A stretch of 20,855 bases of DNA from the IMG/VR virus record IMGVR_UViG_3300037466_002257; one strand, given 5' to 3'. Of the stretch, positions 5,361-20,855 are shown in pieces. Origin of the DNA: an uncultured virus (IMG/VR IMGVR_UViG_3300037466_002257). Its lineage: Duplodnaviria > Heunggongvirae > Uroviricota > Caudoviricetes. The position numbers and the translations under genes were made by a program. The stretch's first letter is position 1, and every line of letters begins with the position of its first letter. Under the pieces are notes generated by a model. It was not told the DNA's origin. It saw only the letters and a program-made list of their open reading frames with translations, and searched no databases.

Positions 5361-5405
5361 GATCGAAAGTTCCTTTCCGGCCTTTATCGGCCATTGAGTG
5401 CTCAC

Positions 5406-5446
5406 CCTGAGCGCTCAGGGAAGTGCGCCACCGCAAGGTGGCGCAC
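5406..5446. promoter_or_regulatory. Two adjacent intergenic hairpins
   Basis: CCCTGA-GCGC-TCAGGG followed by GTGCGCCACC-GCAA-GGTGGCGCAC (10 bp); no clear U-tract. Confidence 0.6.
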
Positions 5447-5451
5447 AGGCC

Positions 5452-5952
5452 TCAGCGTTCGTGGGTGGTGGTGGTGGTGGTGGTGTCTTGCGGGGCGAGC
5501 GGCACGATGCCGTGCGCGGCTTCGATGGCGCGGACGAGTGCCAGCATGTCCCGCAAGACCCAATCCATGCTCACGCCGGGCTTCGCATATGCAATCAGGC
5601 GATCCCACACACCGCTGTCGATCAACGTCGCTATGGCCCGCGTCTCCGCCAGCGGCACCCGCACGGCCTGCGGTGCGCGGGACAGGGCGGCGAGAGCGTA
5701 TTCGCGCATCTGACCGGCAGTGAACGCAGGCTCATGCGACATCCCATAGCGGGGGTCGGGGAAATAATGCTGCGGCAACGGCGGCACTTCCCGCTCGCTT
5801 GCTGCGGCTGCTTCTCGCTCACTGCTCGGTGTGTCAGCGCGAGCAGAGGACAGCCTTTCGATGGATCGCTGCTTGGCTTCGATCTTTGCCGCACGGCGGG
5901 ACGTGTCGATCGCAAACTCATCCAGCGAGTCATCCGGTGTGTCAGTCGCCAT
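5452..5952 (-). CDS. Hypothetical mosaic phage protein (166 aa; poly-Thr tail)
   Basis: AAGGAG RBS before ATG 5952. Confidence 0.75.
   Translation of the reverse strand: MATDTPDDSLDEFAIDTSRRAAKIEAKQRSIERLSSARADTPSSEREAAAASEREVPPLPQHYFPDPRYGMSHEPAFTAGQMREYALAALSRAPQAVRVPLAETRAIATLIDSGVWDRLIAYAKPGVSMDWVLRDMLALVRAIEAAHGIVPLAPQDTTTTTTTHER
5464..5484 (+). repeat. (GGT)7 microsatellite encoding Thr7
   Basis: Read directly from the sequence. Confidence 0.9.
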
Positions 5953-7418: not shown

Positions 7419-7993
7419 CGCACGCTCTCCAGCCACTCGCGGTCGGTGGGCAGGCCCTGCTTCATCTGCCGCATCACCTCCACCGGGTCACTGAAGTCGC
7501 CCATGAGGAAGCGCAGCGCGTTGAAGGGCGGCGTCGGGTAGCACTCGACGATGTCCTCGGGCCGCACCCAGCGCACGTACACGCCGCCGCCGCCGAGGAG
7601 GGCCGCGACTTCGACCCATTCCTTGCCGCTGTCGGCGCCGCTCGTGACCTGGACGCGGCCGATGACGCGGCCGATGCCGTCGTCGGGCGCCTCGTCGAGC
7701 GAGTGCCAGCGCACCCAGTTGCCGGGCTTGGCCTTGTAGCGGCCGAAGCCGAGCGTGCTGGCGCGCGGCAGGTGCACGCCCACGCCGTCGCGGATGCAGT
7801 CGGTGCGGGTGATCTGCAGCGCGTGGATGCGCTGGTTCATTTCGTCGTTGGTCATCGCTTTTCCTTTCCGGCCTTGCCGGGCGATATGCGGGTGCTCCCT
7901 CGGCTGCGACGTGACGGGCTCTCTGCAGGGTTCGCCCGGCTTAACGCCGCAGGTTGGGCAGTGGATGCGCTGGCTCACTTCGTCGTTGGTCAT
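7415..7993 (-). CDS. Hypothetical protein with N-terminal C-x2-C-x7-C...H zinc finger; second in-frame start at 7855
   Basis: CPTCGVKPGEPC...HPHIAR; both ATG 7993 and ATG 7855 have a GAAAGGAAA RBS and begin MTNDE. Confidence 0.8.
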   Translation of the reverse strand: MTNDEVSQRIHCPTCGVKPGEPCREPVTSQPREHPHIARQGRKGKAMTNDEMNQRIHALQITRTDCIRDGVGVHLPRASTLGFGRYKAKPGNWVRWHSLDEAPDDGIGRVIGRVQVTSGADSGKEWVEVAALLGGGGVYVRWVRPEDIVECYPTPPFNALRFLMGDFSDPVEVMRQMKQGLPTDREWLESVR

Positions 7994-8549: not shown

Positions 8550-8597
8550 GGTCTGCTTTCTGCCCTGTGTGGGCGTTGGTGTCAGCGTGAACAGTGC

Positions 8598-8643
8598 TGA
8601 CAGGATTGCACACTATTTGGGAATAGTGTGCAAGGTCTGTCAA
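8598..8643. promoter_or_regulatory. AT-rich palindromic operator/promoter-like site
   Basis: TTGCACACTATT-TGGG-AATAGTGTGCAA (8606-8633) flanked by TGACAG/CTGTCA; minus-strand TTGACA at 8638-8643. Confidence 0.7.
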
Positions 8644-8650
8644 CCCGTTG

Positions 8651-11851: not shown

Positions 11852-12084
11852 GGCTTTTCTCCTGCCGCCCACGGGGCGGGCGCTTGCTGGTGGGCGAGGG
11901 CCGCAAGGTCCTCGGTCGTGGCGTCGCGCCAGAGCGTGCTGCGCGGGCTTGCCTCGGTGTCGAGGTTCGGCACCTCGACTTGCAGCACGAGGTAGGTGCG
12001 GCTTACGAGCAAGCCGTCGCGCACGGTCACGGTGCGCAGGCGGGTGCGCCCGGTCGGGTCGTAGAGAGGGTCGCGCGTTGCCAT
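11848..12084 (-). CDS. Hypothetical phage protein (78 aa; LVLQVEV...WRDATTEDL)
   Basis: GAGGAAGG RBS; fits the tiling. Confidence 0.8.
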   Translation of the reverse strand: MATRDPLYDPTGRTRLRTVTVRDGLLVSRTYLVLQVEVPNLDTEASPRSTLWRDATTEDLAALAHQQAPAPWAAGEKP

Positions 12085-12085
12085 G

Positions 12086-12301
12086 TCAGGCCTTCCTCGT
12101 GCCTCGGTGCACGCGCAGCTCGCCCGTGGTCAGGCTCATGCTGATGCGCGGCTCGACGAACGGCGCATGCTTGCGCCCCTTGTTCGGCCCGCTCGGGCAG
12201 GTCGTGTTGTTGCCGCGATCTCGCCACTCGCCCTTGCGGTACGGGGCGAAGCCTTCGATGTCCTGCCCGCAGTGGCGGCAGGTCGTCTGTCTGACGTTCA
12301 T
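12086..12301 (-). CDS. Small putative zinc-binding protein (71 aa; CRHC...C...H)
   Basis: GAAAGG RBS; Cys/His pattern. Confidence 0.8.
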   Translation of the reverse strand: MNVRQTTCRHCGQDIEGFAPYRKGEWRDRGNNTTCPSGPNKGRKHAPFVEPRISMSLTTGELRVHRGTRKA

Positions 12302-12312
12302 GGCAGGGCCTT

Positions 12313-12600
12313 TCAGGAATGGAACTCGAACGCGGCGCCCGGCTGGCGCTGGATGCAGCCGAGGGTCAGGGCCGCCCCGGTGTGGTAGTGGATGCGCACG
12401 ATCCATTCGAGCCAGCCGGGGTGCTTCCAGGCGGGCGCATCGGCCGCCACGCGCTCTTGCGGGTACACGTCGATCACCTTGGCCTGCGGGATGTGCAGCG
12501 CAAGGCGGGCGAGGACGGCGGCCAGCATGCCCGCGTCCAGCTCCCAGCCGTGCACGTTGTGCACGGTGAGCGTGCAGGTCTTGTCTTCGGGTGTGGTCAT
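12313..12600 (-). CDS. Hypothetical protein (95 aa, MTTPEDKT...)
   Basis: AGAAAGGA RBS before ATG 12600. Confidence 0.8.
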   Translation of the reverse strand: MTTPEDKTCTLTVHNVHGWELDAGMLAAVLARLALHIPQAKVIDVYPQERVAADAPAWKHPGWLEWIVRIHYHTGAALTLGCIQRQPGAAFEFHS

Positions 12601-12859
12601 GGCAAAGGTCCTTTCTGCGCGGTGTCTCGCGCGTTGGTGCCCCGACGGCGTCTTTGCCGGTGGCGCTGTCGGGCGGGAGGCGAGGTTACAGGCGGGCGAG
12701 CTGGGCCAGCACCTCGCTGGCCGTGAGCACGCCGGGGAAGGGCTTGGCGGCCCGCTGGCGCGGCTTTCGGGGCCGGGGCGCGGGGGCAGGTGCTTGGAGG
12801 CGGCCGGAGCGCACCACGCGGCCCCTGTGCGGCCCGCTGGCGGGTGCCTGGTTCGGGGC

Positions 12860-12948
12860 CGCTGTCGGGGACTGGCCCGCTGTCGGGGACTGGCCCTTGC
12901 CCTTGCCCGTAGACGCTGTCGGGGACATGAACGCTGTCGGGGACAGCG
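12860..12948 (+). repeat. Four copies of CGCTGTCGGGGAC spaced 18/36/18 bp
   Basis: Copies start at 12860, 12878, 12914 and 12932; the last is part of the palindrome CGCTGTC-GGG-GACAGCG. Confidence 0.9.
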
Positions 12949-13319
12949 CGAACCAAATGTTGGAAGTTGAACCTTGGGAGTACACGGTAATACCTTTTTC
13001 AAGACACGATTTTTCTTTATGCAGAAAATCGCGAGATTTGCGGGCGCTTCAGATCGAAAAGCGCATGAGCAGCCACAGGCAGCCAGAGGCAGCCCTCAAA
13101 CGGCGACTTGGTGAAATACCGGAGCTGAAATCCGGGGAAGGGGGGTACTAGGTCCAGAGAACACGAAAAAATCGCACTTTTAGAACGCGTTTTTTCTGCG
13201 ATTTCCCCGTAGACCGCGCTTTTTCCCCCAACATGGGTATTTCGAGTATTCAGGGTATGAAGGCTGTCTGTGGCTGCTTGGGACTGCCTTGCGGTTGCAG
13301 AATCTAACAAACCCCGCGC

Positions 13320-13332
13320 TAAGTCGTTGATT
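13320..13332 (-). promoter_or_regulatory. IHF-binding consensus
   Basis: AATCAACGACTTA matches WATCAANNNNTTR, inside an AT-rich non-coding tract. Confidence 0.55.
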
Positions 13333-13412
13333 CGCTCGTACATTAAGTTGCAGAAGCAACACTTTTTACAAGTCGGTAATACTCGGGGTTCAAATGAGTA
13401 CTTCTGGCTGCG

Positions 13413-13482
13413 TCGCTCATTTCAGACCCAGGCAGCTTGCGGGGCCTGAAATGGGCGAACCACGAGGTCGCGCGTGGTTCGC
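13413..13482 (-). promoter_or_regulatory. Overlapping double hairpin
   Basis: 10-bp stem 13455-13482 shares 4 nt with a stem of about 17 bp at 13413-13458. Confidence 0.65.
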
Positions 13483-13496
13483 AAGACCGCCTTATA

Positions 13497-13570
13497 GACT
13501 GACCGGTCAGTCATTAACTCGCGTTGCTGACCGGTTGGTCATTAACTCGTGCTGCTGACCGGTCGGTCAC
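13497..13570. repeat. 28-bp tandem repeat (about 2.6 units) with palindromic core CTGACCGGTYRGTCA
   Basis: Units at 13499, 13527 and 13555; GACTGACCGGTCAGTC (13497-13512) is a perfect 16-bp palindrome. Confidence 0.9.
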
Positions 13571-13723
13571 TACGGTCACGACGGCCCGACCGGGTCGGGT
13601 GTGCGTCGCCCTGTAGCGGGACGGCCTTGCGGCGACGCGCTTCTGCGCCTTGCGCCGGGCCGCCCACTGCTCGTCGATCTCGCGCACGGTCGCCTGGACC
13701 TGCCTGTAGGCGTTCCAGTTCAT
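13514..13723 (-). CDS. Basic hypothetical protein (69 aa); 3' end runs through the tandem repeat
   Basis: GAAAGGGG RBS; ATGA overlap. Confidence 0.65.
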   Translation of the reverse strand: MNWNAYRQVQATVREIDEQWAARRKAQKRVAARPSRYRATHTRPGRAVVTVVTDRSAARVNDQPVSNAS

Positions 13724-13860
13724 GAGCGCCCCTTTCCGGCCTCCCAGCGGGCTTCCTGCCGGTACAGGCCCACAGCCAGCCCGATCATGGCCGCGACGAA
13801 CAGGGCGAGGGCGAGCATCTGTGGCCCGTACCAGAGGGCTTCGACAATCCAGCGGCTCAT
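13720..13860 (-). CDS. Small membrane protein (46 aa, MSRWIVEALW...)
   Basis: GAGGTG RBS; ATGA overlaps; one TM segment. Confidence 0.75.
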   Translation of the reverse strand: MSRWIVEALWYGPQMLALALFVAAMIGLAVGLYRQEARWEAGKGRS

Positions 13861-14126
13861 GCCGTCACCTCGATGCACTGCGGCGCCGTCGGGACGTGCT
13901 CGAACACGTCGCCGGGCACGTAGGTGTAGGTGGTCACGACCTTGCCGAAGTCGGCTCGCTCGTCGGCCTCGCACTCGGCGATGAAGATGGCCGCCTCTTC
14001 GGCCGTGAGGCCTTCGGTGCCGGTCATGCGCTCGCCGGAGCGCAGGTACAGGCTGTCGTTGTTGTGGCCGATGGCGTGCACGTAGGCCGGGCCGTTGTTC
14101 GGCTCGATGCGGGGATTGAGCTTCAT
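13857..14126 (-). CDS. Hypothetical protein (89 aa, MKLNPRIE...)
   Basis: Consensus RBS motif. Confidence 0.85.
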   Translation of the reverse strand: MKLNPRIEPNNGPAYVHAIGHNNDSLYLRSGERMTGTEGLTAEEAAIFIAECEADERADFGKVVTTYTYVPGDVFEHVPTAPQCIEVTA

Positions 14127-14466
14127 GTCGAAGTTCCTTTCTGTCCTGCGTGGGACGGGGTTGATGGATCAGCGGTAGCCGCGTGCTTGGTAGTTGTGGC
14201 CGAAGCGCCGCTCTTTGTCCGCGTACAGTGCGACGCTGGCCTGCATCGCGCTCAGCCGGTTGTGCTCGCGACACCACTCGACGAGCTGCTCGCGCGTCTT
14301 GTACTGGCACGAGGACATGTAGGCGGGCTTGCCCCAGCACTTGAACTCCGCGAGCGTGCCGTCGCTCATCTCGCACAGCAGGGTGCCCTGCACCCACTCG
14401 ACAGCCATCGAAACGATGTTGAGCTTCACGGAAGTTCCTTTCTGTCCTGCGTGGGACGTGGGTTGA
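14116..14466. repeat. Direct repeat of about 48 bp covering leader, RBS and first codons of two adjacent genes
   Basis: 14130-14157 is identical to 14431-14458 (28 bp); TTGAGCTTCA and GGTTGA flanks are also shared. Confidence 0.95.
14169..14429 (-). CDS. Hypothetical protein (86 aa, GTG start, MKLNIVSM...)
   Basis: GTG directly behind GAAAGGAACTTCC. Confidence 0.8.
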   Translation of the reverse strand: MKLNIVSMAVEWVQGTLLCEMSDGTLAEFKCWGKPAYMSSCQYKTREQLVEWCREHNRLSAMQASVALYADKERRFGHNYQARGYR

Positions 14467-14470
14467 ACAC

Positions 14471-14504
14471 TCAGGCATGCACCGGCTCGCGGTGCATGCG
14501 CTGA
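14471..14504. promoter_or_regulatory. Intergenic hairpin
   Basis: GCATGCACCG-N5-CGGTGCATGC (14475-14499) flanked by TCAG/CTGA; no U-tract. Confidence 0.6.
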
Positions 14505-14508
14505 AGGC

Positions 14509-14688
14509 TCAAGGGCGCTGCGACACCATTTCGAAACCGGCCGCCTCCAGTTTGTCCCACGTTTCGCGGGCATATCCGAGGGCGAAGGCGCGGCCTTCGG
14601 GCGTGCGGGACCAGACATGGTCTCCACCGCCGATTACGGTGGAGAGGGCGCCGCTGGTGTGCGGCAGGCGAAACCAGATGGTGTGCAT
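14509..14688 (-). CDS. Hypothetical protein (59 aa, MHTIWFRLPH...), absent from the ORF track
   Basis: Hand translation; GAAAGGAACTCCATC RBS. Confidence 0.8.
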   Translation of the reverse strand: MHTIWFRLPHTSGALSTVIGGGDHVWSRTPEGRAFALGYARETWDKLEAAGFEMVSQRP

Positions 14689-14728
14689 GATGGAGTTCCT
14701 TTCGAAGTTCAGCGGTCGCGGGTGCTTG

Positions 14729-15076
14729 TCACTTCACCATGTTCAGGAGGCTCACGCCCACGACGGCGGTCGCGAAGGCGGTCCACAGGCCGAGCCAGTC
14801 GAGCGACAGCGTCAGGCGCCTGTACTTCACGAGCAGGGCTGCACGCTCGTGCCGGAAGCCGTGATACGGGCTGTAGTGGCTGCGCCGCATCTCCAGCCAC
14901 GCGCCGACCATCAGGGCGAGCAGGGCGCCGATGCCGGGTGCCATGCCCACGAGGAACAGGGCGAAGACGTTGGTGCTCGCGCCGATGAATCCGCCGAGCA
15001 TGGTGAGCACGAACACGTAGGCCAGGATGCGCAGGCTGTGGCGCTCGCAAGCGCGGTAGGCGTGAAAGACGTTCAT
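14729..15076 (-). CDS. Membrane protein (115 aa, about 3 TM segments)
   Basis: Hydrophobic stretches; GAAAGGAACTTTCAAC RBS. Confidence 0.85.
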   Translation of the reverse strand: MNVFHAYRACERHSLRILAYVFVLTMLGGFIGASTNVFALFLVGMAPGIGALLALMVGAWLEMRRSHYSPYHGFRHERAALLVKYRRLTLSLDWLGLWTAFATAVVGVSLLNMVK

Positions 15077-15097
15077 GTTGAAAGTTCCTTTCGTGGT

Positions 15098-15199
15098 TCA
15101 GCGGATGGCAGCGAGCAGGCCGGTTGCGGCCAGGGTGAGCATCACGGCGGTCGCGGCCAGCATGAGATCGAAGAGGTTCACGTTGCGGGTGAGGTTCAT
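15098..15199 (-). CDS. Small single-TM peptide (33 aa, MNLTRNVNLFDLMLAATAVMLTLAATGLLAAIR), absent from the ORF track
   Basis: AGAAAG RBS; stop abuts the next RBS. Confidence 0.7.
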   Translation of the reverse strand: MNLTRNVNLFDLMLAATAVMLTLAATGLLAAIR

Positions 15200-15202
15200 G
15201 AT

Positions 15203-16269
15203 GTTGCTTTCTGTCCGGTGCGGACGTTAGATGGGAGCTTGGCGCTCCTGCGAGTGCACGTTGTCGATGCACTCGCAGGAACGCACCTTGCGGTGCGCTC
15301 CGGCCCGATACGGCCCTTGCGGGGCCATAGGATCGCGTCGGTGCCGCGCGATCAGGGTTCACCCGCGAGTCAGGCGCTTCACAGCAAAGCCTCGCGGGGT
15401 TCGTCGCTTCGTCGGATGTTGTCGAATTGGGCGCCGTGTCACATCAGGATTACGGGGTCAAGCCGGTCCATTTTTTCGCTCGCCTCTCCCACACGGGCGG
15501 CATGCTCGCAAGCATGCGCTAGGCGTGTGGCTCGAACGGATTTAACGGTGGTGGCAATTCGGACGCGTGGGCAGTTAGCCAGGCACGCGCGCACTCCTAT
15601 CCACGCGCGGCAATTAAGCGGTCGCGTTTCGTTTGGTTCATGCTCCGATTTTGGTGGCAGACGATCATTCCACCTTTATCTGTCGTACTGCTCGCACCCT
15701 GCACCCGTCACGGGTTGATGCCTGCGTCTCGCGTCCTGCTCTTGTCGCTCCCTTTTGGGGTTGCTTTTTCCGTTACTCTGTTCAGCCGTGCATGCGTTGC
15801 ATGCCGTGCCTACCGTCGCTCGGTGGCAGTTTGCGCGTGACTGTGGCGGATTGAATCTCCGACAGAATGGAAACCGTTTTAGCGGCTCCCGTGTTTGAGT
15901 GATTGACAGTGAGAGGCTTACGCGCGTTCTGAATGGCCGTTCATGCGTACATTGGACGGGAGCGACTGGAGCAGGCAGGGCGGTTGCCGTCCTGCTCTAG
16001 CGGCTCGCGCCGGGCGATTCCCGCGCGGGCGTGACTGTCAATCCATTGTTAATGAACGGTTGCCCGGCTCAATGTCCCGCCATCCCGGCGGGTAGGTTAG
16101 GCGCTGCCGACAAGGGCCACTAAGGGCGCTAGCGGGAGCCTCCTAACGTCAGAGCGAGGCCGCGTGTGATCACGCGTACTAGGGAGGAGTTATCGTCCTG
16201 CTCCTAGCGTCAGGGCTGCACACCGGCAACCCTGACGCTAGGAGCCTGCTCGCGCAGGCTCCGGACGCG
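15203..16269 (-). ncRNA. Candidate large structured non-coding RNA or leader (about 1.07 kb)
   Basis: No credible ORF in an otherwise densely coded genome; more than 15 helices; stem mismatches resolve as G-U on the minus strand; GNRA loops; long-range complementary pairs. Confidence 0.65.
16046..16066 (-). promoter_or_regulatory. boxA-like antitermination element preceded by a small GCAA hairpin
   Basis: CGTTCATTAACAA versus the boxA consensus (T/C)GCTCTTTAACA; CGG-GCAA-CCG immediately 5'. Confidence 0.45.
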
Positions 16270-17019
16270 TTAGGCGGGCAAGGCCAGCGGCGCAGCTACC
16301 GTGCGCGCCGCCACATCGATGACCTCGGCCGCGCGCACGTCGGCGAGTGCGGACGCGATCAACGCGAGGCCGTCCGCGTCAAACCTGCCTGCGCGCACCA
16401 TGTCTGCGACGGCCTGCGCAGTCAGGCCAGCGAGCGCGGCCTGCATGCCCGATTCGTGAATGCGTTGCCGTTCGGCTTGGTCCTGCTCGCGCGCCTCGGC
16501 GGCCTCGCGCGCCTCGGCGGCCTCGCGCTCTGCCTGCTTCGCGGCCTTTTTCGCCTCGCGCTCTGCCTGCTTTTCAGCGGACAGCGCGACGGGTGCGAGC
16601 TTGGAGAATGCATCGTCCGCGAGCGCTGCGCCGAGTGCCTGCGCCTCGCTCCAGTCGGCAACGCTGCGTGTTTGCCCCTTCAATGCATGCGTGAACAGGA
16701 CGCATGCGTCCGCGTAGCGCTCCATCTTCGCGCCCTTGAACACTTCGGGGAGGCGCTTCCAGTCGGCCGGGTTGCCGTGGCCCTTGGGGGCCGCGTTGAC
16801 GAGCGCGAGCGCAAGCACGGTCCCGACCTGCGCGACGATGAGCGCATGCTTGAGGGTCTTGTCTTTGGACAGCGCGGCCGACAGCGTGTCAAGCGCTGTC
16901 ATCCCGTAGAACTGCGCCGAGGCTTCCACCTTGACAGCGGCCGCGACGGCGGACAGGTCCAGAGCAGGACGCGCGGCGCCCTTGGGTTGCTTGACTTGGG
17001 TTGCTTGGGTCTTAGCCAT
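16270..17019 (-). CDS. Ala-rich hypothetical protein with charged coiled coil (249 aa); first gene of the leftward operon
   Basis: GGAGAG RBS before ATG 17019; EAREA repeats. Confidence 0.85.
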   Translation of the reverse strand: MAKTQATQVKQPKGAARPALDLSAVAAAVKVEASAQFYGMTALDTLSAALSKDKTLKHALIVAQVGTVLALALVNAAPKGHGNPADWKRLPEVFKGAKMERYADACVLFTHALKGQTRSVADWSEAQALGAALADDAFSKLAPVALSAEKQAEREAKKAAKQAEREAAEAREAAEAREQDQAERQRIHESGMQAALAGLTAQAVADMVRAGRFDADGLALIASALADVRAAEVIDVAARTVAAPLALPA

Positions 17020-17220
17020 TTCGATTCTCTCCAGCCCCGTCGGGGCCACTGTCGGAGGCGTCCGGTCCCGGTGCGGGACCTATCAACGCAACCGACAACC
17101 GAATTAGAGCACGAATGGCGCGCCGCTACTAGCCCTTTCAACGCGTTGCAAGCATTCCGAACAGACAGAATAGTTATGTCACGGCCGTCCTTTATGCGCG
17201 CCCCGACGGCGCCGGGGCCG

Positions 17221-17272
17221 CTGTCCACAGCCTGTGGACAAGCCCCAGGTATCCACAGGCCTCTGTGGACAA
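17221..17272. promoter_or_regulatory. Cluster of four DnaA-box-like 9-mers in two inverted pairs
   Basis: CTGTCCACA 17221, TGTGGACAA 17233, GTATCCACA 17249, TGTGGACAA 17264 (consensus TT(A/T)TNCACA; TTGTCCACA is a known high-GC variant). Confidence 0.65.
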
Positions 17273-17607
17273 AACCGTCTTGGAAACAGAAGTACTACAG
17301 CCTAGGACGGCCGGAAAGGGCCTTCTGAGCCGCGCGCGCCCCGACAGTACCGCCGCCCTTGACGGGGCCGCGAACGGGGCTCTAGCGCATTTTCAGGAAC
17401 CAAAGGATTACAGGGTAAACCCGCACGGAATCTGTAGTACGCAAGACCTACAAATTCCTGGCCCCGACGGGGCCGCCGACGGGGCGGGCGCCGCTGGCAC
17501 TGGCTCCGCCGGGGCCGCCGCCGCTGGCAGGGATGGGTACACATCCGACGGCAGAGCAGGGCGGCCGGGCCAACCAGGCTCGAAAATTTCCCAAAGGAAC
17601 TTTTCAA

Positions 17608-17674
17608 AACTTTTGGTCCAAAAGTTGACATTTCTGTCAAAATGCTTGACGGCTCAGCCAAAGTTCGGCACAGT
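17608..17674 (+). promoter_or_regulatory. Palindromic operators and candidate sigma70 promoter of the rightward operon
   Basis: AACTTTTGG-T-CCAAAAGTT, TTGACA-TTTC-TGTCAA, then TTGACG-N17-CACAGT (weak -10). Confidence 0.5.
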
Positions 17675-17689
17675 TGGCAGCTCAACAGC

Positions 17690-17735
17690 GCCAAAGCCCC
17701 AGCCCCAGCCCCAGCCCCAGCCAAAGCCCCAGCCC
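17690..17735 (+). repeat. Hexamer tandem repeat (GCCCCA/GCCAAA)n, about 7.5 units
   Basis: Read directly; lies just upstream of ATG 17748. Confidence 0.9.
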
Positions 17736-17747
17736 AAGAAAGCGCCT

Positions 17748-18041
17748 ATGGACATCGACAACAGCAGCTTCTTCGACACGCGCACCGCACACGTCCCGCC
17801 GATGCGCGACACCGTGGACGACGAGTTCAAGGCGCCCGACTGGCGCGAGGCCACCCTGGGCGCTGTCCTGGCCGCTGCCATCGTCGGGGCCGTCCTGCTC
17901 ACCGCACGCCTCTGGCCCGAGCCGGGCACGGTCACCCTGCAGCGGGCCGACTGGCGCTGCACCAAGAGCGAGATCGCCGACGCGCATGAGCCCAGCTTGC
18001 GAGGCGTCACGCGCTGCATCGAGTACGTGAGGACGAAATGA
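17748..18041 (+). CDS. Membrane-anchored hypothetical protein (97 aa)
   Basis: AGAAAG RBS; one TM segment; W-x-C...C-x2-Y C-terminal pattern. Confidence 0.8.
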   Translation: MDIDNSSFFDTRTAHVPPMRDTVDDEFKAPDWREATLGAVLAAAIVGAVLLTARLWPEPGTVTLQRADWRCTKSEIADAHEPSLRGVTRCIEYVRTK

Positions 18042-18358
18042 CCGGCAGCCTGGTGTTCATCGCGATGCTCTTGGCGGCGGCCTTCGGCGTCCACTCCTGC
18101 ACGCAGTCGGATTGGTACAAGGCCGACATCGCCAAGTACGAAGCGGACAAGCAAGCTGCCACGGTGCCGCGCATCGTGAGCCGCAGTGCCGACGGCTGCG
18201 AGGTCTACGCCTTCAATCCCGGCGACCGCTGGCGCTACTTCACGCGCTGCGGGGCGCAGACGACGACCGACAACAGCTACACGGTGACGCGCACGTCGGG
18301 CAAGACCACGACGACCGAGACGGTCGATGACTCGATCACCACAGTGAGGTCCAAATGA
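18038..18358 (+). CDS. Exported/lipoprotein-like protein, DUF4884-like
   Basis: Signal-like N-terminus ending in Cys; DGCEVYAF...RYFTRC motif (family recalled from memory, not searched). Confidence 0.7.
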   Translation: MTGSLVFIAMLLAAAFGVHSCTQSDWYKADIAKYEADKQAATVPRIVSRSADGCEVYAFNPGDRWRYFTRCGAQTTTDNSYTVTRTSGKTTTTETVDDSITTVRSK

Positions 18359-18501
18359 CCGGCTGGGCCGCCTTCTGGCTGTGCGTGGCCGTCTTCATCC
18401 TCTGCGAATGCATCCTGACGATGCACGGCATCGACACCTTCCTCTGGCAGTTCCGCACACCCGCAGAACTCGACATCCAGAAAGACCTGAGCAAGCCATG
18501 A
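18355..18501 (+). CDS. Small membrane protein (48 aa, MTGWAAFWLCVAVFIL...), absent from the ORF track
   Basis: GAGG RBS; ATGA overlaps at both ends. Confidence 0.8.
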   Translation: MTGWAAFWLCVAVFILCECILTMHGIDTFLWQFRTPAELDIQKDLSKP

Positions 18502-18737
18502 GCCATCCCGAACAACTCGCCATCCAGCAGGACAGCCTGGACCTGTGCCACAAGATCGCCCAGCACACCGGCCACGAGCCGAGCGTCGTGCTGGAAAAGG
18601 CACTTCGCACCTACGCCGCGCTGCACACGCTGCACGAGGACAACGGCATCGTCGCCATCCACCAGCACGGGCGGCTGCACCGGCTGGACCTGTCCACGGA
18701 CGCCGCGCACCTTGCCCACGAGCACCGCAGATCATGA
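18498..18737 (+). CDS. Small His-rich protein, possible ribbon-helix-helix fold (79 aa)
   Basis: ATGA overlaps; beta-alpha-alpha-like pattern (...IAQHTG..PSVVLEKALRTY). Confidence 0.65.
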   Translation: MSHPEQLAIQQDSLDLCHKIAQHTGHEPSVVLEKALRTYAALHTLHEDNGIVAIHQHGRLHRLDLSTDAAHLAHEHRRS

Positions 18738-19072
18738 GACCCAAACCGCTCAAGGAGCGGCTCACCCCGGAATTGGTCAGGGCCTTGGAGGACAGGACCA
18801 TGACCAACTCCGAGGTGGCCGCAATTCTCGACGTGAACCCGGCCTACCTGAGCACGGTGTTCAACACGATCTCGAGGAAAAAGCGCGGACCGGTGCGCGA
18901 GCAGCGCGAGTGGATGCGTGATCTGGTCGCGGCCCGCCGCGACGTGCGCGTGCAGGAAGCGCGCAAGGTCGCTCAAGGGCGCAAGTCCATCGAGCAGGCC
19001 GCGCTGGACGCGAACTGCAGCGAGCGCACGATCCGCCGCTACGTCGAAAAAGTGGCTTCGAAAGAGGCCTAA
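18734..19072 (+). CDS. DNA-binding protein with two HTH motifs (112 aa)
   Basis: TNSEVAAILDVNPAYLS and SIEQAALDANCSERTIRRY. Confidence 0.8.
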   Translation: MRPKPLKERLTPELVRALEDRTMTNSEVAAILDVNPAYLSTVFNTISRKKRGPVREQREWMRDLVAARRDVRVQEARKVAQGRKSIEQAALDANCSERTIRRYVEKVASKEA

Positions 19073-19548: not shown

Positions 19549-19886
19549 TCCTCGATCCCGACTACGCCCGCGTCTTCACGCAAGCCCGCATCATCGCCTG
19601 GCAGTACGGCTACTCGGCGAGCCTGCACGGCTCCTACACGCGCGACCTGGACATCCTGCTGACGCCGTGGACCAAAGAGGCGCGGCCCAACCACGACCAA
19701 CTCGTGCGGCTCATCGCGGACGCCTGCAACCTGACCGTGTCGGTGCTGAACACGCAAGGCGACATCCGCTGGACCGAAAAGCCCCACGGCCGACGCGCGA
19801 CAAGCCTGCACTTCCCCGGCTTCGGGGATCGTCGCTGGGTGGGCATCTCGATCATGCCGTGCGCACCGGGAGTCGCCCATGCTTGA
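19545..19886 (+). CDS. Phage protein with nucleotidyltransferase-like motif (LHGSYTRDLD)
   Basis: hhGS...DxD resembles the Pol-beta superfamily signature; ATGA overlap with the upstream gene. Confidence 0.7.
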   Translation: MILDPDYARVFTQARIIAWQYGYSASLHGSYTRDLDILLTPWTKEARPNHDQLVRLIADACNLTVSVLNTQGDIRWTEKPHGRRATSLHFPGFGDRRWVGISIMPCAPGVAHA

Positions 19887-20855
19887 CCGCGTCCTCTTTC
19901 GCGAGCACATCGAGCGGGTGCGCTCGGACGTGTCGGCCCGTCACTCGCTTGCGGACATTCCGGCGTGGATCACCGAGAACACCTACATCCGGGGCCAGAA
20001 GTACAGCTTCAAGGACCACGAATTTCAGGAGTACATCATCCGCTCGGAAGACACCGAGGTGAACGTGATGAAGTGCTCGCAGGTGGGCCTGTCGGAGATC
20101 ATGGCCCGCTGGGTGATGGCCGTGGCCTACAACTTCCCGGCGTTCTCGACCATCATCACCTTCCCGTTCTCAGGCGACGCGAACGACTTCGCCAAGACGC
20201 GGGTCGATCCCTTCATCCAGTCCTCGCCCAAGCTGTCGGAGGCGATGAGCAAGCTGGACAACAAGGACATCAAGCAGATTCGCGAGTCGCTGGTCTACTT
20301 CCGAGGCACCAACGGCACGACGGCGGCGATCTCGATCCCGGCCGACTGCATCGTCTCGGACGAGATCGACCGCTCCAACCCGCACATCCTGACGCAGTAC
20401 ACCTCGCGCCTGACGCACTCGCCGTACAAGCTGCGAAGGAACTTTTCGACGCCCACGGTGAAGGGCTACGGCATCGACCTGAAGATGCAGAGCAGCCGCC
20501 GCTTCGTGAACCTGTGCAAGTGCCACCGCTGCAACGAGTGGTTCCGGCCCGACTTCTTCGAGCACGTCACCATCCCCGGCTACGACGGCGAGGTGAAGGC
20601 CCTGAACAAGAACACCCTTGCGAAGACCCGCTACCTGGAGGCCTATCTGCGCTGCCCGAAGTGCGGCAAGGAGCCGAGCCTGTACCCGGCGCAGCGCGAG
20701 TACGTGTGCGAGAACGCGGGCGACGGCTTCGAGGCCAAGGGCATCTACGTCAGCCCCTTCGACGCACCGGCCATCATCACGCCCACGTCGCTCCTGAAGG
20801 CGATGGTCGAGTACGCCCGGTTCTCCGAGTTCGTCAACCAGAACCTCGGGCAGAC
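19879..20855 (+). CDS. terL: Terminase large subunit, lambda gpA family (N-terminal about 325 aa; runs off the window; absent from the ORF track)
   Basis: Hand translation MLDRVLFREH...: HEFQ adenine-binding motif, KCSQVGLSE Walker A variant, IVSDEIDR Walker B, FSTPT coupling motif, CHRC...CPKC zinc ribbon. Confidence 0.93.
   Translation, partial: MLDRVLFREHIERVRSDVSARHSLADIPAWITENTYIRGQKYSFKDHEFQEYIIRSEDTEVNVMKCSQVGLSEIMARWVMAVAYNFPAFSTIITFPFSGDANDFAKTRVDPFIQSSPKLSEAMSKLDNKDIKQIRESLVYFRGTNGTTAAISIPADCIVSDEIDRSNPHILTQYTSRLTHSPYKLRRNFSTPTVKGYGIDLKMQSSRRFVNLCKCHRCNEWFRPDFFEHVTIPGYDGEVKALNKNTLAKTRYLEAYLRCPKCGKEPSLYPAQREYVCENAGDGFEAKGIYVSPFDAPAIITPTSLLKAMVEYARFSEFVNQNLGQ

Follow-up and report, generated by a model that had tools for sequence, protein, structure and literature searches.

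A hairpin-bounded, gene-free kilobase in an uncultivated soil phage: a candidate read-through control region of an early operon

Why would a phage keep more than a kilobase without a gene directly behind the first gene of a leftward operon? We examined this question for an uncultured member of the Caudoviricetes represented by the IMG/VR record IMGVR_UViG_3300037466_002257, whose 20,855 nucleotides form the whole stretch analysed here (the window). A first-pass annotation, made from the letters alone, had described the gap behind the first leftward gene (g1) as about 1 kb free of open reading frames (ORFs), filled with helices, and possibly encoding a large undescribed phage noncoding RNA (ncRNA). 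Our analysis confirms that the gap holds no gene, locates its strong folding at its two ends, and finds an arrangement of the same kind in related phages. We tentatively favor, at somewhat less than an even chance, the reading that the gap acts in cis to punctuate the early operon and to control read-through in it, and that it is not one large folded RNA.

The gap lies between the g1 stop codon (16270) and the next start codon (15199) and measures 1,070 nt. In the real genes of the window, the GC content of third codon positions (GC3) is 0.8-0.95 and that of second positions (GC2) about 0.45, and no frame of the gap shows this codon pattern. All gap ORFs of at least 25 amino acids (aa) were rejected as coding on their GC content at the three codon positions, which is flat, and on the lack of a ribosome-binding site (RBS); the sole exception is a doubtful 33-aa ORF at 15227-15328, which spans hairpins. 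ARAGORN detected no tRNA or tmRNA gene in the window or in nine related loci. The earlier description of an ORF-free kilobase thus holds, with limits at 15200-16269 and no frame that combines a coding GC pattern with an RBS, and so does its description of the sequence as A-rich (A 0.23 and T 0.15 on the minus strand). These results support the view that the gap is non-coding and is no chance gap.

How much of the gap is folded is a separate matter. The ten helices listed in the first-pass annotation all fold as described on the minus strand, with z-scores of -2.35 to -8.92 against shuffled sequences and 0 to 9 of 200 shuffles folding equally well in each case; the minus strand gives the more stable fold for five of them and the plus strand for three, with no difference for the other two. 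Over 1000 nt (15270-16269), the z-score is -6.2 on the minus and -3.1 on the plus strand. When the minus strand was divided into nine 120-nt tiles, however, only the end tiles stood out (16164-16283, z -5.1; 15204-15323, z -8.6, against -3.0 for the plus strand of the latter), whereas the seven tiles between them gave z-scores of -0.2 to -1.4. The middle 761 nt (15400-16160) have z-scores of -2.2 (minus strand) and -1.1 (plus strand), within the range of thirteen coding controls of the same length from the same window (+0.64 to -2.37). Only the two ends of the gap are therefore strongly folded, and the roughly 800 nt between them fold no better than coding controls. The picture of a gap filled with helices is right only in part: in the comparison with shuffles that had been proposed as its check, the 1000-nt stretch and the ends stand out, and the middle stays within the range of the controls. 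Strong hairpins also occur at other junctions of the operon, for example at 5364-5483 (z -7.0) and 14604-14723 (z -4.8), which indicates that hairpin punctuation is a habit of this phage.

The features of the gap to which we refer below are as follows; MFE denotes the minimum free energy.

16194..16267, minus strand: 5' module; MFE -55.7 kcal/mol, z -6.5, 0 of 200 shuffles as good
15221..15353, minus strand: 3' module of five hairpins; MFE -79.5 kcal/mol, z -6.2, 0 of 200 shuffles as good
15732..16203, minus strand: three direct copies of GAGCAGGACG, at 16203-16194, 15997-15988 and 15741-15732
15735..15997, minus strand: competing pairings, from an inverted-repeat search and a hairpin fold
15489..15530, minus strand: internal hairpin with a UGCG apical loop, the same in a variant strain though both of its flanks differ
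16032..16083, minus strand: 42-nt block common to the window and the related phage L027, 79% identity, including GTTCATTAACAAT (16057-16045)

The 5' module begins 3 nt past the g1 stop codon. Its outer 5-bp stem, formed by CGUCC (16267-16263) and GGACG (16198-16194), closes two hairpins: one of 9 bp with a GCGA loop (16262-16241), and a longer one of 15 bp (16240-16205), or 20 bp if the GCUCC/GGAGC arms are taken instead. The hairpins of the 3' module lie at 15353-15331, 15329-15309, 15301-15278 (GCAA loop), 15277-15249 and 15248-15234, the last three enclosed by a 5-bp outer stem (15307-15303 with 15225-15221), and the module ends 21 nt upstream of the next start codon. Between the modules, the non-palindromic GAGCAGGACG recurs at spacings of 206 and 256 nt. 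Two extra copies lie outside the gap, at 16962-16971 (plus strand, inside g1) and 17891-17900 (minus strand), giving five exact copies in the window against 0.12 expected, a number that 0 of 100 shuffles reach; a triple 10-mer within the gap zone alone has p = 0.004. A partial complement of the repeat, CCUGCUC (15975-15969), pairs locally with GAGCAGG (15997-15991), and the same region could alternatively form an 18-nt helix of 89% complementarity (15975-15958 with 15752-15735). A 13-nt complement of the repeat also lies inside the g1 message, at 16973-16961.

Is this arrangement peculiar to one phage? Nucleotide comparison, one of the checks proposed for the first-pass annotation, yielded no homologue of the gap: there is none in 50,697 phage records, and word searches found none in viral contigs (22-mer) or genome contigs (23-mer). 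We therefore turned to proteins. Related uncultivated phages were found through the terminase, and more were added by a search with the family of their first leftward gene. The terminases of L024/G004, L026 and L027 are 46-48% identical to that of the window, and the first leftward genes of these phages form one protein family; L035/L036 and L037 came from the search with this family. Each carries an ORF-free zone behind that gene.

L027: 570 nt
L035/L036: 723 nt
L037: at least 763 nt, truncated where the contig stops
G004: 770 nt
L026: 905 nt

With the window included, such a zone is present in all six phages that have a comparable gene, and all ORFs of at least 40 aa in the five related zones were rejected as coding on the same two grounds as those of the gap. 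Two further phages, L028 and L029, whose large terminase subunits are 41-43% identical, have no such zone behind the first leftward gene; where their codon periodicity is low, long ORFs of atypical composition are present. Since phage genomes waste little space, a kilobase without a gene that is kept in six diverged soil phages is likely to have a role.

The recurrence extends to the fold at the 5' border. Directly behind the stop codon, five of the six phages (the window, L027, L026, L035 and L037) have the same stem-closed architecture, an outer stem of 4-5 bp enclosing one short and one long hairpin, with sequences that differ between the phages. These architectures come from independent single-sequence folds, with z-scores of -4.9 to -6.8, and 0 of 200 shuffles folded equally well in any of the five. 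In G004, a single composite hairpin takes this place; over all six phages the z-scores are -4.9 to -8.5, again with 0 of 200 shuffles each. When the 5' modules of L027, L035 and L026 were aligned, 11 of 23 pairs were kept through changes on both sides, a count that comes from three sequences only. A covariance model built from these three (R1) finds a fourth relative (23.5 bits, E-value 0.0017). Covariation, another check proposed earlier, is thus suggested for three relatives, and the module of the window cannot be aligned to theirs. As model R1 misses the window's module, the link between the window and its relatives rests on position and architecture, the 42-nt block aside.

At the other border, the zones of L027 and L035 close with two hairpins: the first stands between an A tract and a U tract, and the second, in L027, carries a U tract of its own. 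Both zone ends show the U tract expected of a terminator, and the A-tract/U-tract hairpins look like two-way terminators. About 15 to 20 nt remain between these terminal hairpins and the next RBS. This leaves no room for a promoter, so the downstream genes of these two phages would need read-through. After the terminal hairpins and just upstream of the start codon, a motif, ACGYCUGGAGC, is conserved between the two (L027 5174-5290, L035 4330-4446).

Beyond the borders, little is common to the zones. Pairwise BLAST of the six zones returns blocks of 60 nt or less only, and their six-way alignment, made around an ACAAT core, has a mean column identity of 43% with about 8 nt in common and was rejected as too weak for a common structure. 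The 42-nt block of the window and L027 has an E-value of 8e-5 pairwise and 0.013 against the whole 93-kb L027 record, with the same orientation and the same relative place in both, and L026 holds a degenerate copy, GCTCCTTAACAAT. In L035 (3841-4060) and L037 (3769-3988), a core of about 220 nt shows 59% nucleotide identity compared with 65% for g1 and is thus as conserved as the neighboring protein gene, while the rest of the two zones cannot be aligned. One stem of this core switches from CUUGC/GCAAG to CAACA/UGUUG, and this core could represent a separate small RNA or binding region. A 17-mer common to L035 and L037 was also followed up and discarded: it occurs at 21 loci, 18 of which are chance matches, given their unrelated flanks and GC contents of 0.33-0.59. 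Triple repeats are significant in the window and in L026 (p = 0.002), borderline in G004 (p = 0.054) and absent in the other three zones; the triple 9-mers of L026 and G004 each come with one inverted copy.

Whole-zone folds beat shuffles in four of four zones (sense/antisense z-scores of -6.2/-3.1, -4.7/-3.1, -2.7/-2.5 and -4.1/-2.8), and A exceeds T on the sense strand in all six. The first-pass annotation had also read G-U pairs and GNRA loops on the minus strand as a sign of selection at the RNA level. The loops are there (GCGA, GCAA and GUGA, together with a UNCG-type loop), and gap stems of at least 9 pairs contain 3 G.U against 1 A.C; over the six zones, however, the wobble test gives no strand signal, with 8 G.U against 12 A.C.

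The absence of a gene is a direct observation, as are the hairpins with their positions and the repetition of the arrangement in relatives. Transcription of the gap, terminator or processing roles of its hairpins, and any switching are inferred from this; in our best reading, the gap is an untranslated spacer, most likely transcribed, within the leftward early operon. Control of read-through fits best because of the recurrent position, the junction anchored to the stop codon, and the terminators before the next gene in two relatives, and the habit of this phage of placing hairpins at gene borders agrees with it. In such a scheme, the 5' module would mark and protect the 3' end of the g1 message, or be cut there. 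The 3' hairpin cluster, just before the next RBS, would stop or pause transcription, and the downstream early genes would be reached only by read-through (antitermination) or after processing. The roughly 800 nt in between, with the 42-nt block, the GAGCAGGACG repeats and their complements, and the hairpin at 15489-15530, might tune this decision through alternative pairings.

Several known systems offer models for such control. Lambda tL1 with N-nut, the pR'-6S-tR' leader, and the put RNA of HK022, which consists of two adjoining stem-loops, control phage operons through terminators and antiterminators. Like them, the gap would form a non-coding leader of an early operon, with two abutting stem-loops ahead of terminators that stand directly before the genes to be gated, canonical U-tract ones in L027 and L035. 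Unlike theirs, the module of the window follows a gene and not a promoter, in a leader several times as long; the 3' hairpins of the window have no U tracts, and no antiterminator protein was identified. Adjoining stem-loops and downstream terminators are seen here by folding. In the early mRNA of phage T7, the RNase III processing hairpins between cistrons are irregular, each standing alone in a short gap. The window resembles this in its long hairpins where cistrons of one early transcript would meet, and stems of 19-20 bp are long enough for RNase III, but in the window the stem-closed junctions, predicted from sequence, bound a 1-kb spacer. The P4 CI and P1/P7 C4 immunity RNAs are small RNAs that are processed out of an early leader and base-pair with repeats in that transcript. 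Here the likeness lies in a leader with a three-copy direct repeat and its complements (CCUGCUC at 15975; 13 nt at 16973-16961) and in a junction of about 75 nt whose 5' and 3' ends pair to close it, and the difference in the lack of an Rfam match and in repeats that reach significance in two of six zones and are borderline in a third. By analogy, the gap resembles phage terminator-antiterminator leaders in mechanism, perhaps with put-type or RNase III-type elements, and it belongs to none of the named families tested.

A number of observations weigh against this interpretation. The window hairpins at 16200-16262 and 15234-15353 are followed by mixed sequence without a U tract, and an intrinsic terminator scan of the window found none on the minus strand and two weak ones on the plus strand. 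Although the g1 proteins of the window and the relatives occupy the same place and have a similar Ala/Lys/Glu-rich tail, BLASTP found no match between them and hhalign gave a probability of 8% over 32 columns; likewise, model R1 finds neither the 5' module of the window nor that of G004. Punctuation alone would not need 0.6-1 kb, and it does not explain the spacer length and the short conserved blocks. The lack of strand signal in the wobble pairs would also allow a role of the palindromes at the DNA level. Finally, the only sign from an RNA library is one strandless contig, for which DNA carry-over is possible.

This contig came from one of four runs mapped on 12000-19000, all as contigs. A metatranscriptome contig of 226 nt (run X12, depth 3.7) lies wholly on 15411-15636 and is the only long piece of the phage in that run within the 7 kb, none coming from the flanking genes; uncovered parts were not counted as silence. 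It provides a weak hint that the gap is transcribed, because the run was found with words from the gap stretch, contigs carry neither strand nor ends, and DNA may have been carried over. The search for a transcript proposed in the first-pass annotation thus gave one contig, from which neither strand nor ends nor level can be read. With 12 other letters and 2 gaps, this contig represents a variant strain, which run X10 contains as DNA. Within 15288-15636, the variant differs at 13 letters and 2 small indels, and none of these 15 sites falls in the four first-pass helices that it covers (116 of 349 nt). By our own arithmetic, the chance of this is about 0.002 if the sites are independent and about 0.06 if they are counted as 7 clusters. 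Of nine long-range pairs of the global MFE structure that the variant touches, four would be broken, their partners lying outside the variant contigs. Local hairpins therefore look constrained, and the long-range fold is not supported. At 15539-15554, 8 of 16 consecutive letters differ in the variant, compared with about 2% in the flanks; this is a hypervariable patch or a small replacement.

Does the gap belong to a described RNA family? GOLLD and ROOL are large ornate RNAs often carried by phages, and both are present in Rfam. The gap recalls them in its size of hundreds of nucleotides to a kilobase, its phage location and its lack of an ORF, but no conserved multi-domain core is found among the relatives of the window, and the middle of the gap folds like controls. 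Among 4,227 Rfam models, none matched the window at gathering score. On 14900-16600, eight weak matches appeared at E-values up to 10, none to a large RNA family and none to GOLLD or ROOL. In the related loci there was no match at gathering score (nine loci) and only weak unrelated ones at E-values up to 10 (five loci). The statement that no known family is recognizable thus passed its Rfam check, and the suggested likeness to the GOLLD/ROOL class did not.

One sub-threshold match deserves mention. RAGATH-32 (RF02922) scores 21.9 bits at 16083-16032, against a gathering score of 41.8, and coincides with the only block common to the window and L027. By our own count, about 26 of 35 consensus letters of its 5' part are present, along with the closing AGUCA, but only 12 nt stand in place of the 36 positions of the central hairpin. 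At E-values up to 10, the L027 block has no match, and no relative matches. We therefore rejected filing the gap under RAGATH-32, as the score is below the gathering score, the central hairpin is largely absent, and the match is not repeated in L027. RAGATH-32 is a candidate cis-regulatory motif; according to PMC11061315, most RAGATH motifs have no known function. A literature search for RAGATH-32, the only one made for such an element, found no paper, and the main text of PMC5737381 does not mention it. No Rfam family thus matches the zone or its 5' junction. The kind of element that we think likeliest is a known one.

The surroundings of the gap place it in an uncultivated phage group. The window carries phage genes: a terminase large subunit of the lambda gpA type, at 19879-20853 on the plus strand, is only 33% identical to those of the nearest isolates (50,697 phage records), and two NinX-like genes and other PHROG families lie within the long leftward operon; a divergent region lies at about 17050-17265. 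The source appears to be an uncultivated soil phage of roughly 80 kb. Two IMG/VR records, G001 (63.9 kb, 100% identical) and G002 (99% identical), represent the same phage but end at window positions 16890 and 16986, so that neither includes the gap region. The gap stretch itself is present in 12 soil and rhizosphere runs, each from another study, and this DNA may have come from any of five among them. The genes on either side of the gap are as follows.

16270..17019, minus strand: g1, the first leftward gene; 249 aa from an ATG at 17019 with a GGAGAG RBS, the ORF being open from a GTG at 17049
15098..15199, minus strand: the next gene past the gap, encoding a hydrophobic peptide of 33 aa; GC3 0.91
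14729-15076: the gene after the 33-aa peptide, encoding a 115-aa protein

The C-terminal half of g1 is rich in Ala, Glu and Lys. No Pfam or PHROG family matches the protein, even with relaxed thresholds, and only 2 homologues emerged from a search of 5.8 billion proteins. Searches with g1 gave no related locus in genome contigs and only two weak loci in metagenome contigs (L012 and L013), which have no DNA likeness to the window. The 115-aa protein has no relatives among viral contigs, and a search with a 436-aa protein of the window yielded no related locus. Inside g1, at 16446-16679, tandem 18-nt and 33-nt repeats encode an Ala/Glu-rich run and draw foreign contigs at depths of up to 170-fold; the ends of the two same-phage assemblies (16890 and 16986) lie a few hundred bases to the right of these repeats.

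Other features of the operon may bear on its regulation. A sigma-70 promoter scan of 14900-17400 gave no match, the divergent region included; as promoters must lie there, the scan is uninformative for this host. At 17225-17290, at and just upstream of the rightward gene start (17265), four 8-mers (TGTCCACA, TGTGGACA, TATCCACA, TGTGGACA) form two inverted pairs. They resemble the textbook DnaA-box consensus, and the site could be a DnaA-regulated promoter or an origin. Several leftward genes share a start context of GAAAGGAAC, a short base run and ATG (15071-15098; about 14690 and 5385), and the phage has a 29-nt copy with 97% identity at another place (G001 7427-7455). Codon periodicity is also missing from a second stretch, 12900-13550, which has GC falling to 0.50-0.55 and palindromes that include GACCGGTCAG...CTGACCGGTC beside TATAAG; the leftward operon probably has a further regulatory region here. 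After the stop of the 436-aa gene, at 8590-8650, a nested palindrome that starts with TTGACA and encloses TTGCACACTATT/AATAGTGTGCAA looks like a promoter with an operator.

Other explanations of the gap have to be set against read-through control. The main rival, in line with the first-pass annotation's proposal, is a discrete stable ncRNA from the gap that would act in trans; it strikes us as unlikely, yet several results speak for it. Such an RNA could be the whole stretch of about 0.95 kb between the hairpin modules, which would act as processing sites or protective ends, or RNAs of a few hundred nucleotides. That the X12 contig is the only long RNA-library piece in 7 kb would fit this idea, but the run was picked for words of the gap, so that its coverage is partly selection. 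The sense strand folds better than the antisense strand relative to shuffles in the four zones folded whole and has more A than T in all six; GNRA and UNCG-type loops occur; the perfect 19-20 bp border stems would suit RNase III; and the L035/L037 core is as conserved as the gene beside it. On the other hand, the middle folds like coding controls, Rfam holds no match, the variant breaks long-range pairs, and outside the 5' module the zones have nearly no sequence or demonstrable structure in common. Of the original picture of a heavily paired, undescribed 1-kb ncRNA, the non-coding, recurrent and undescribed parts survive, whereas the pairing of the middle and the tie to GOLLD/ROOL do not. A bolder version, which we consider improbable, would be a new class of phage ncRNA of 0.6-1 kb, excised from the early transcript between two stem-closed multi-hairpin junctions and acting in trans. 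It would have a fast-evolving body and guide-like GAGCAGGACG repeats complementary to sites in both divergent messages (16971-16962 and 17891-17900), and the X12 contig on 15411-15636 would be its first sighting.

The gap might also act as DNA, the GAGCAGGACG repeats and long palindromes forming a binding-site array for a phage or host protein that would serve looping regulation, replication or partition near the divergent early promoters; we give this small credence. The five GAGCAGGACG copies fall within 2.2 kb around the divergent promoter region and on both strands, L026 and G004 have triple 9-mers of their own, the wobble pairs show no strand preference, and DnaA-box-like 8-mers lie nearby. 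Yet triple repeats are absent in three of six zones, those of the window are too widely spaced to resemble iterons or operators, and no AT-rich unwinding stretch is present, the lowest GC being about 0.58. Moreover, the recurrent stem-closed junction tied to the stop codon changes its sequence and keeps its pairing, which fits RNA better than protein-DNA recognition. Least probable of all, in our judgment, is a functionless spacer, made of the remains of a lost gene or a variable slot for incoming genes, with end hairpins that belong to the neighboring genes. In its favor, L035 and L037 have g1 genes with 65% nucleotide identity and still cannot be aligned over most of the zone, the lengths of the zones differ (570 to 1,070 nt), and both same-phage assemblies break nearby. 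However, six diverged phages keep 0.6-1 kb ORF-free at the same place despite tight packing, no zone holds an ORF remnant with a coding GC pattern, short conserved blocks lie inside the zones, and the differences of the variant avoid the hairpins.

The case carries a caution for sequence scanning: strong hairpins at the ends made an entire kilobase look structured, and tiling with local controls corrected this impression. Should a stable RNA be made from the gap after all, the few large RNAs known from phages would gain a long, fast-evolving member. If the gap instead acts as a read-through gate of the early operon, as we tentatively propose, it would supply a recurrent and easily recognized RNA junction, placed just after a stop codon, as a query for other viromes, and it would provide a handle on how an uncultivated group of phages times its early genes.

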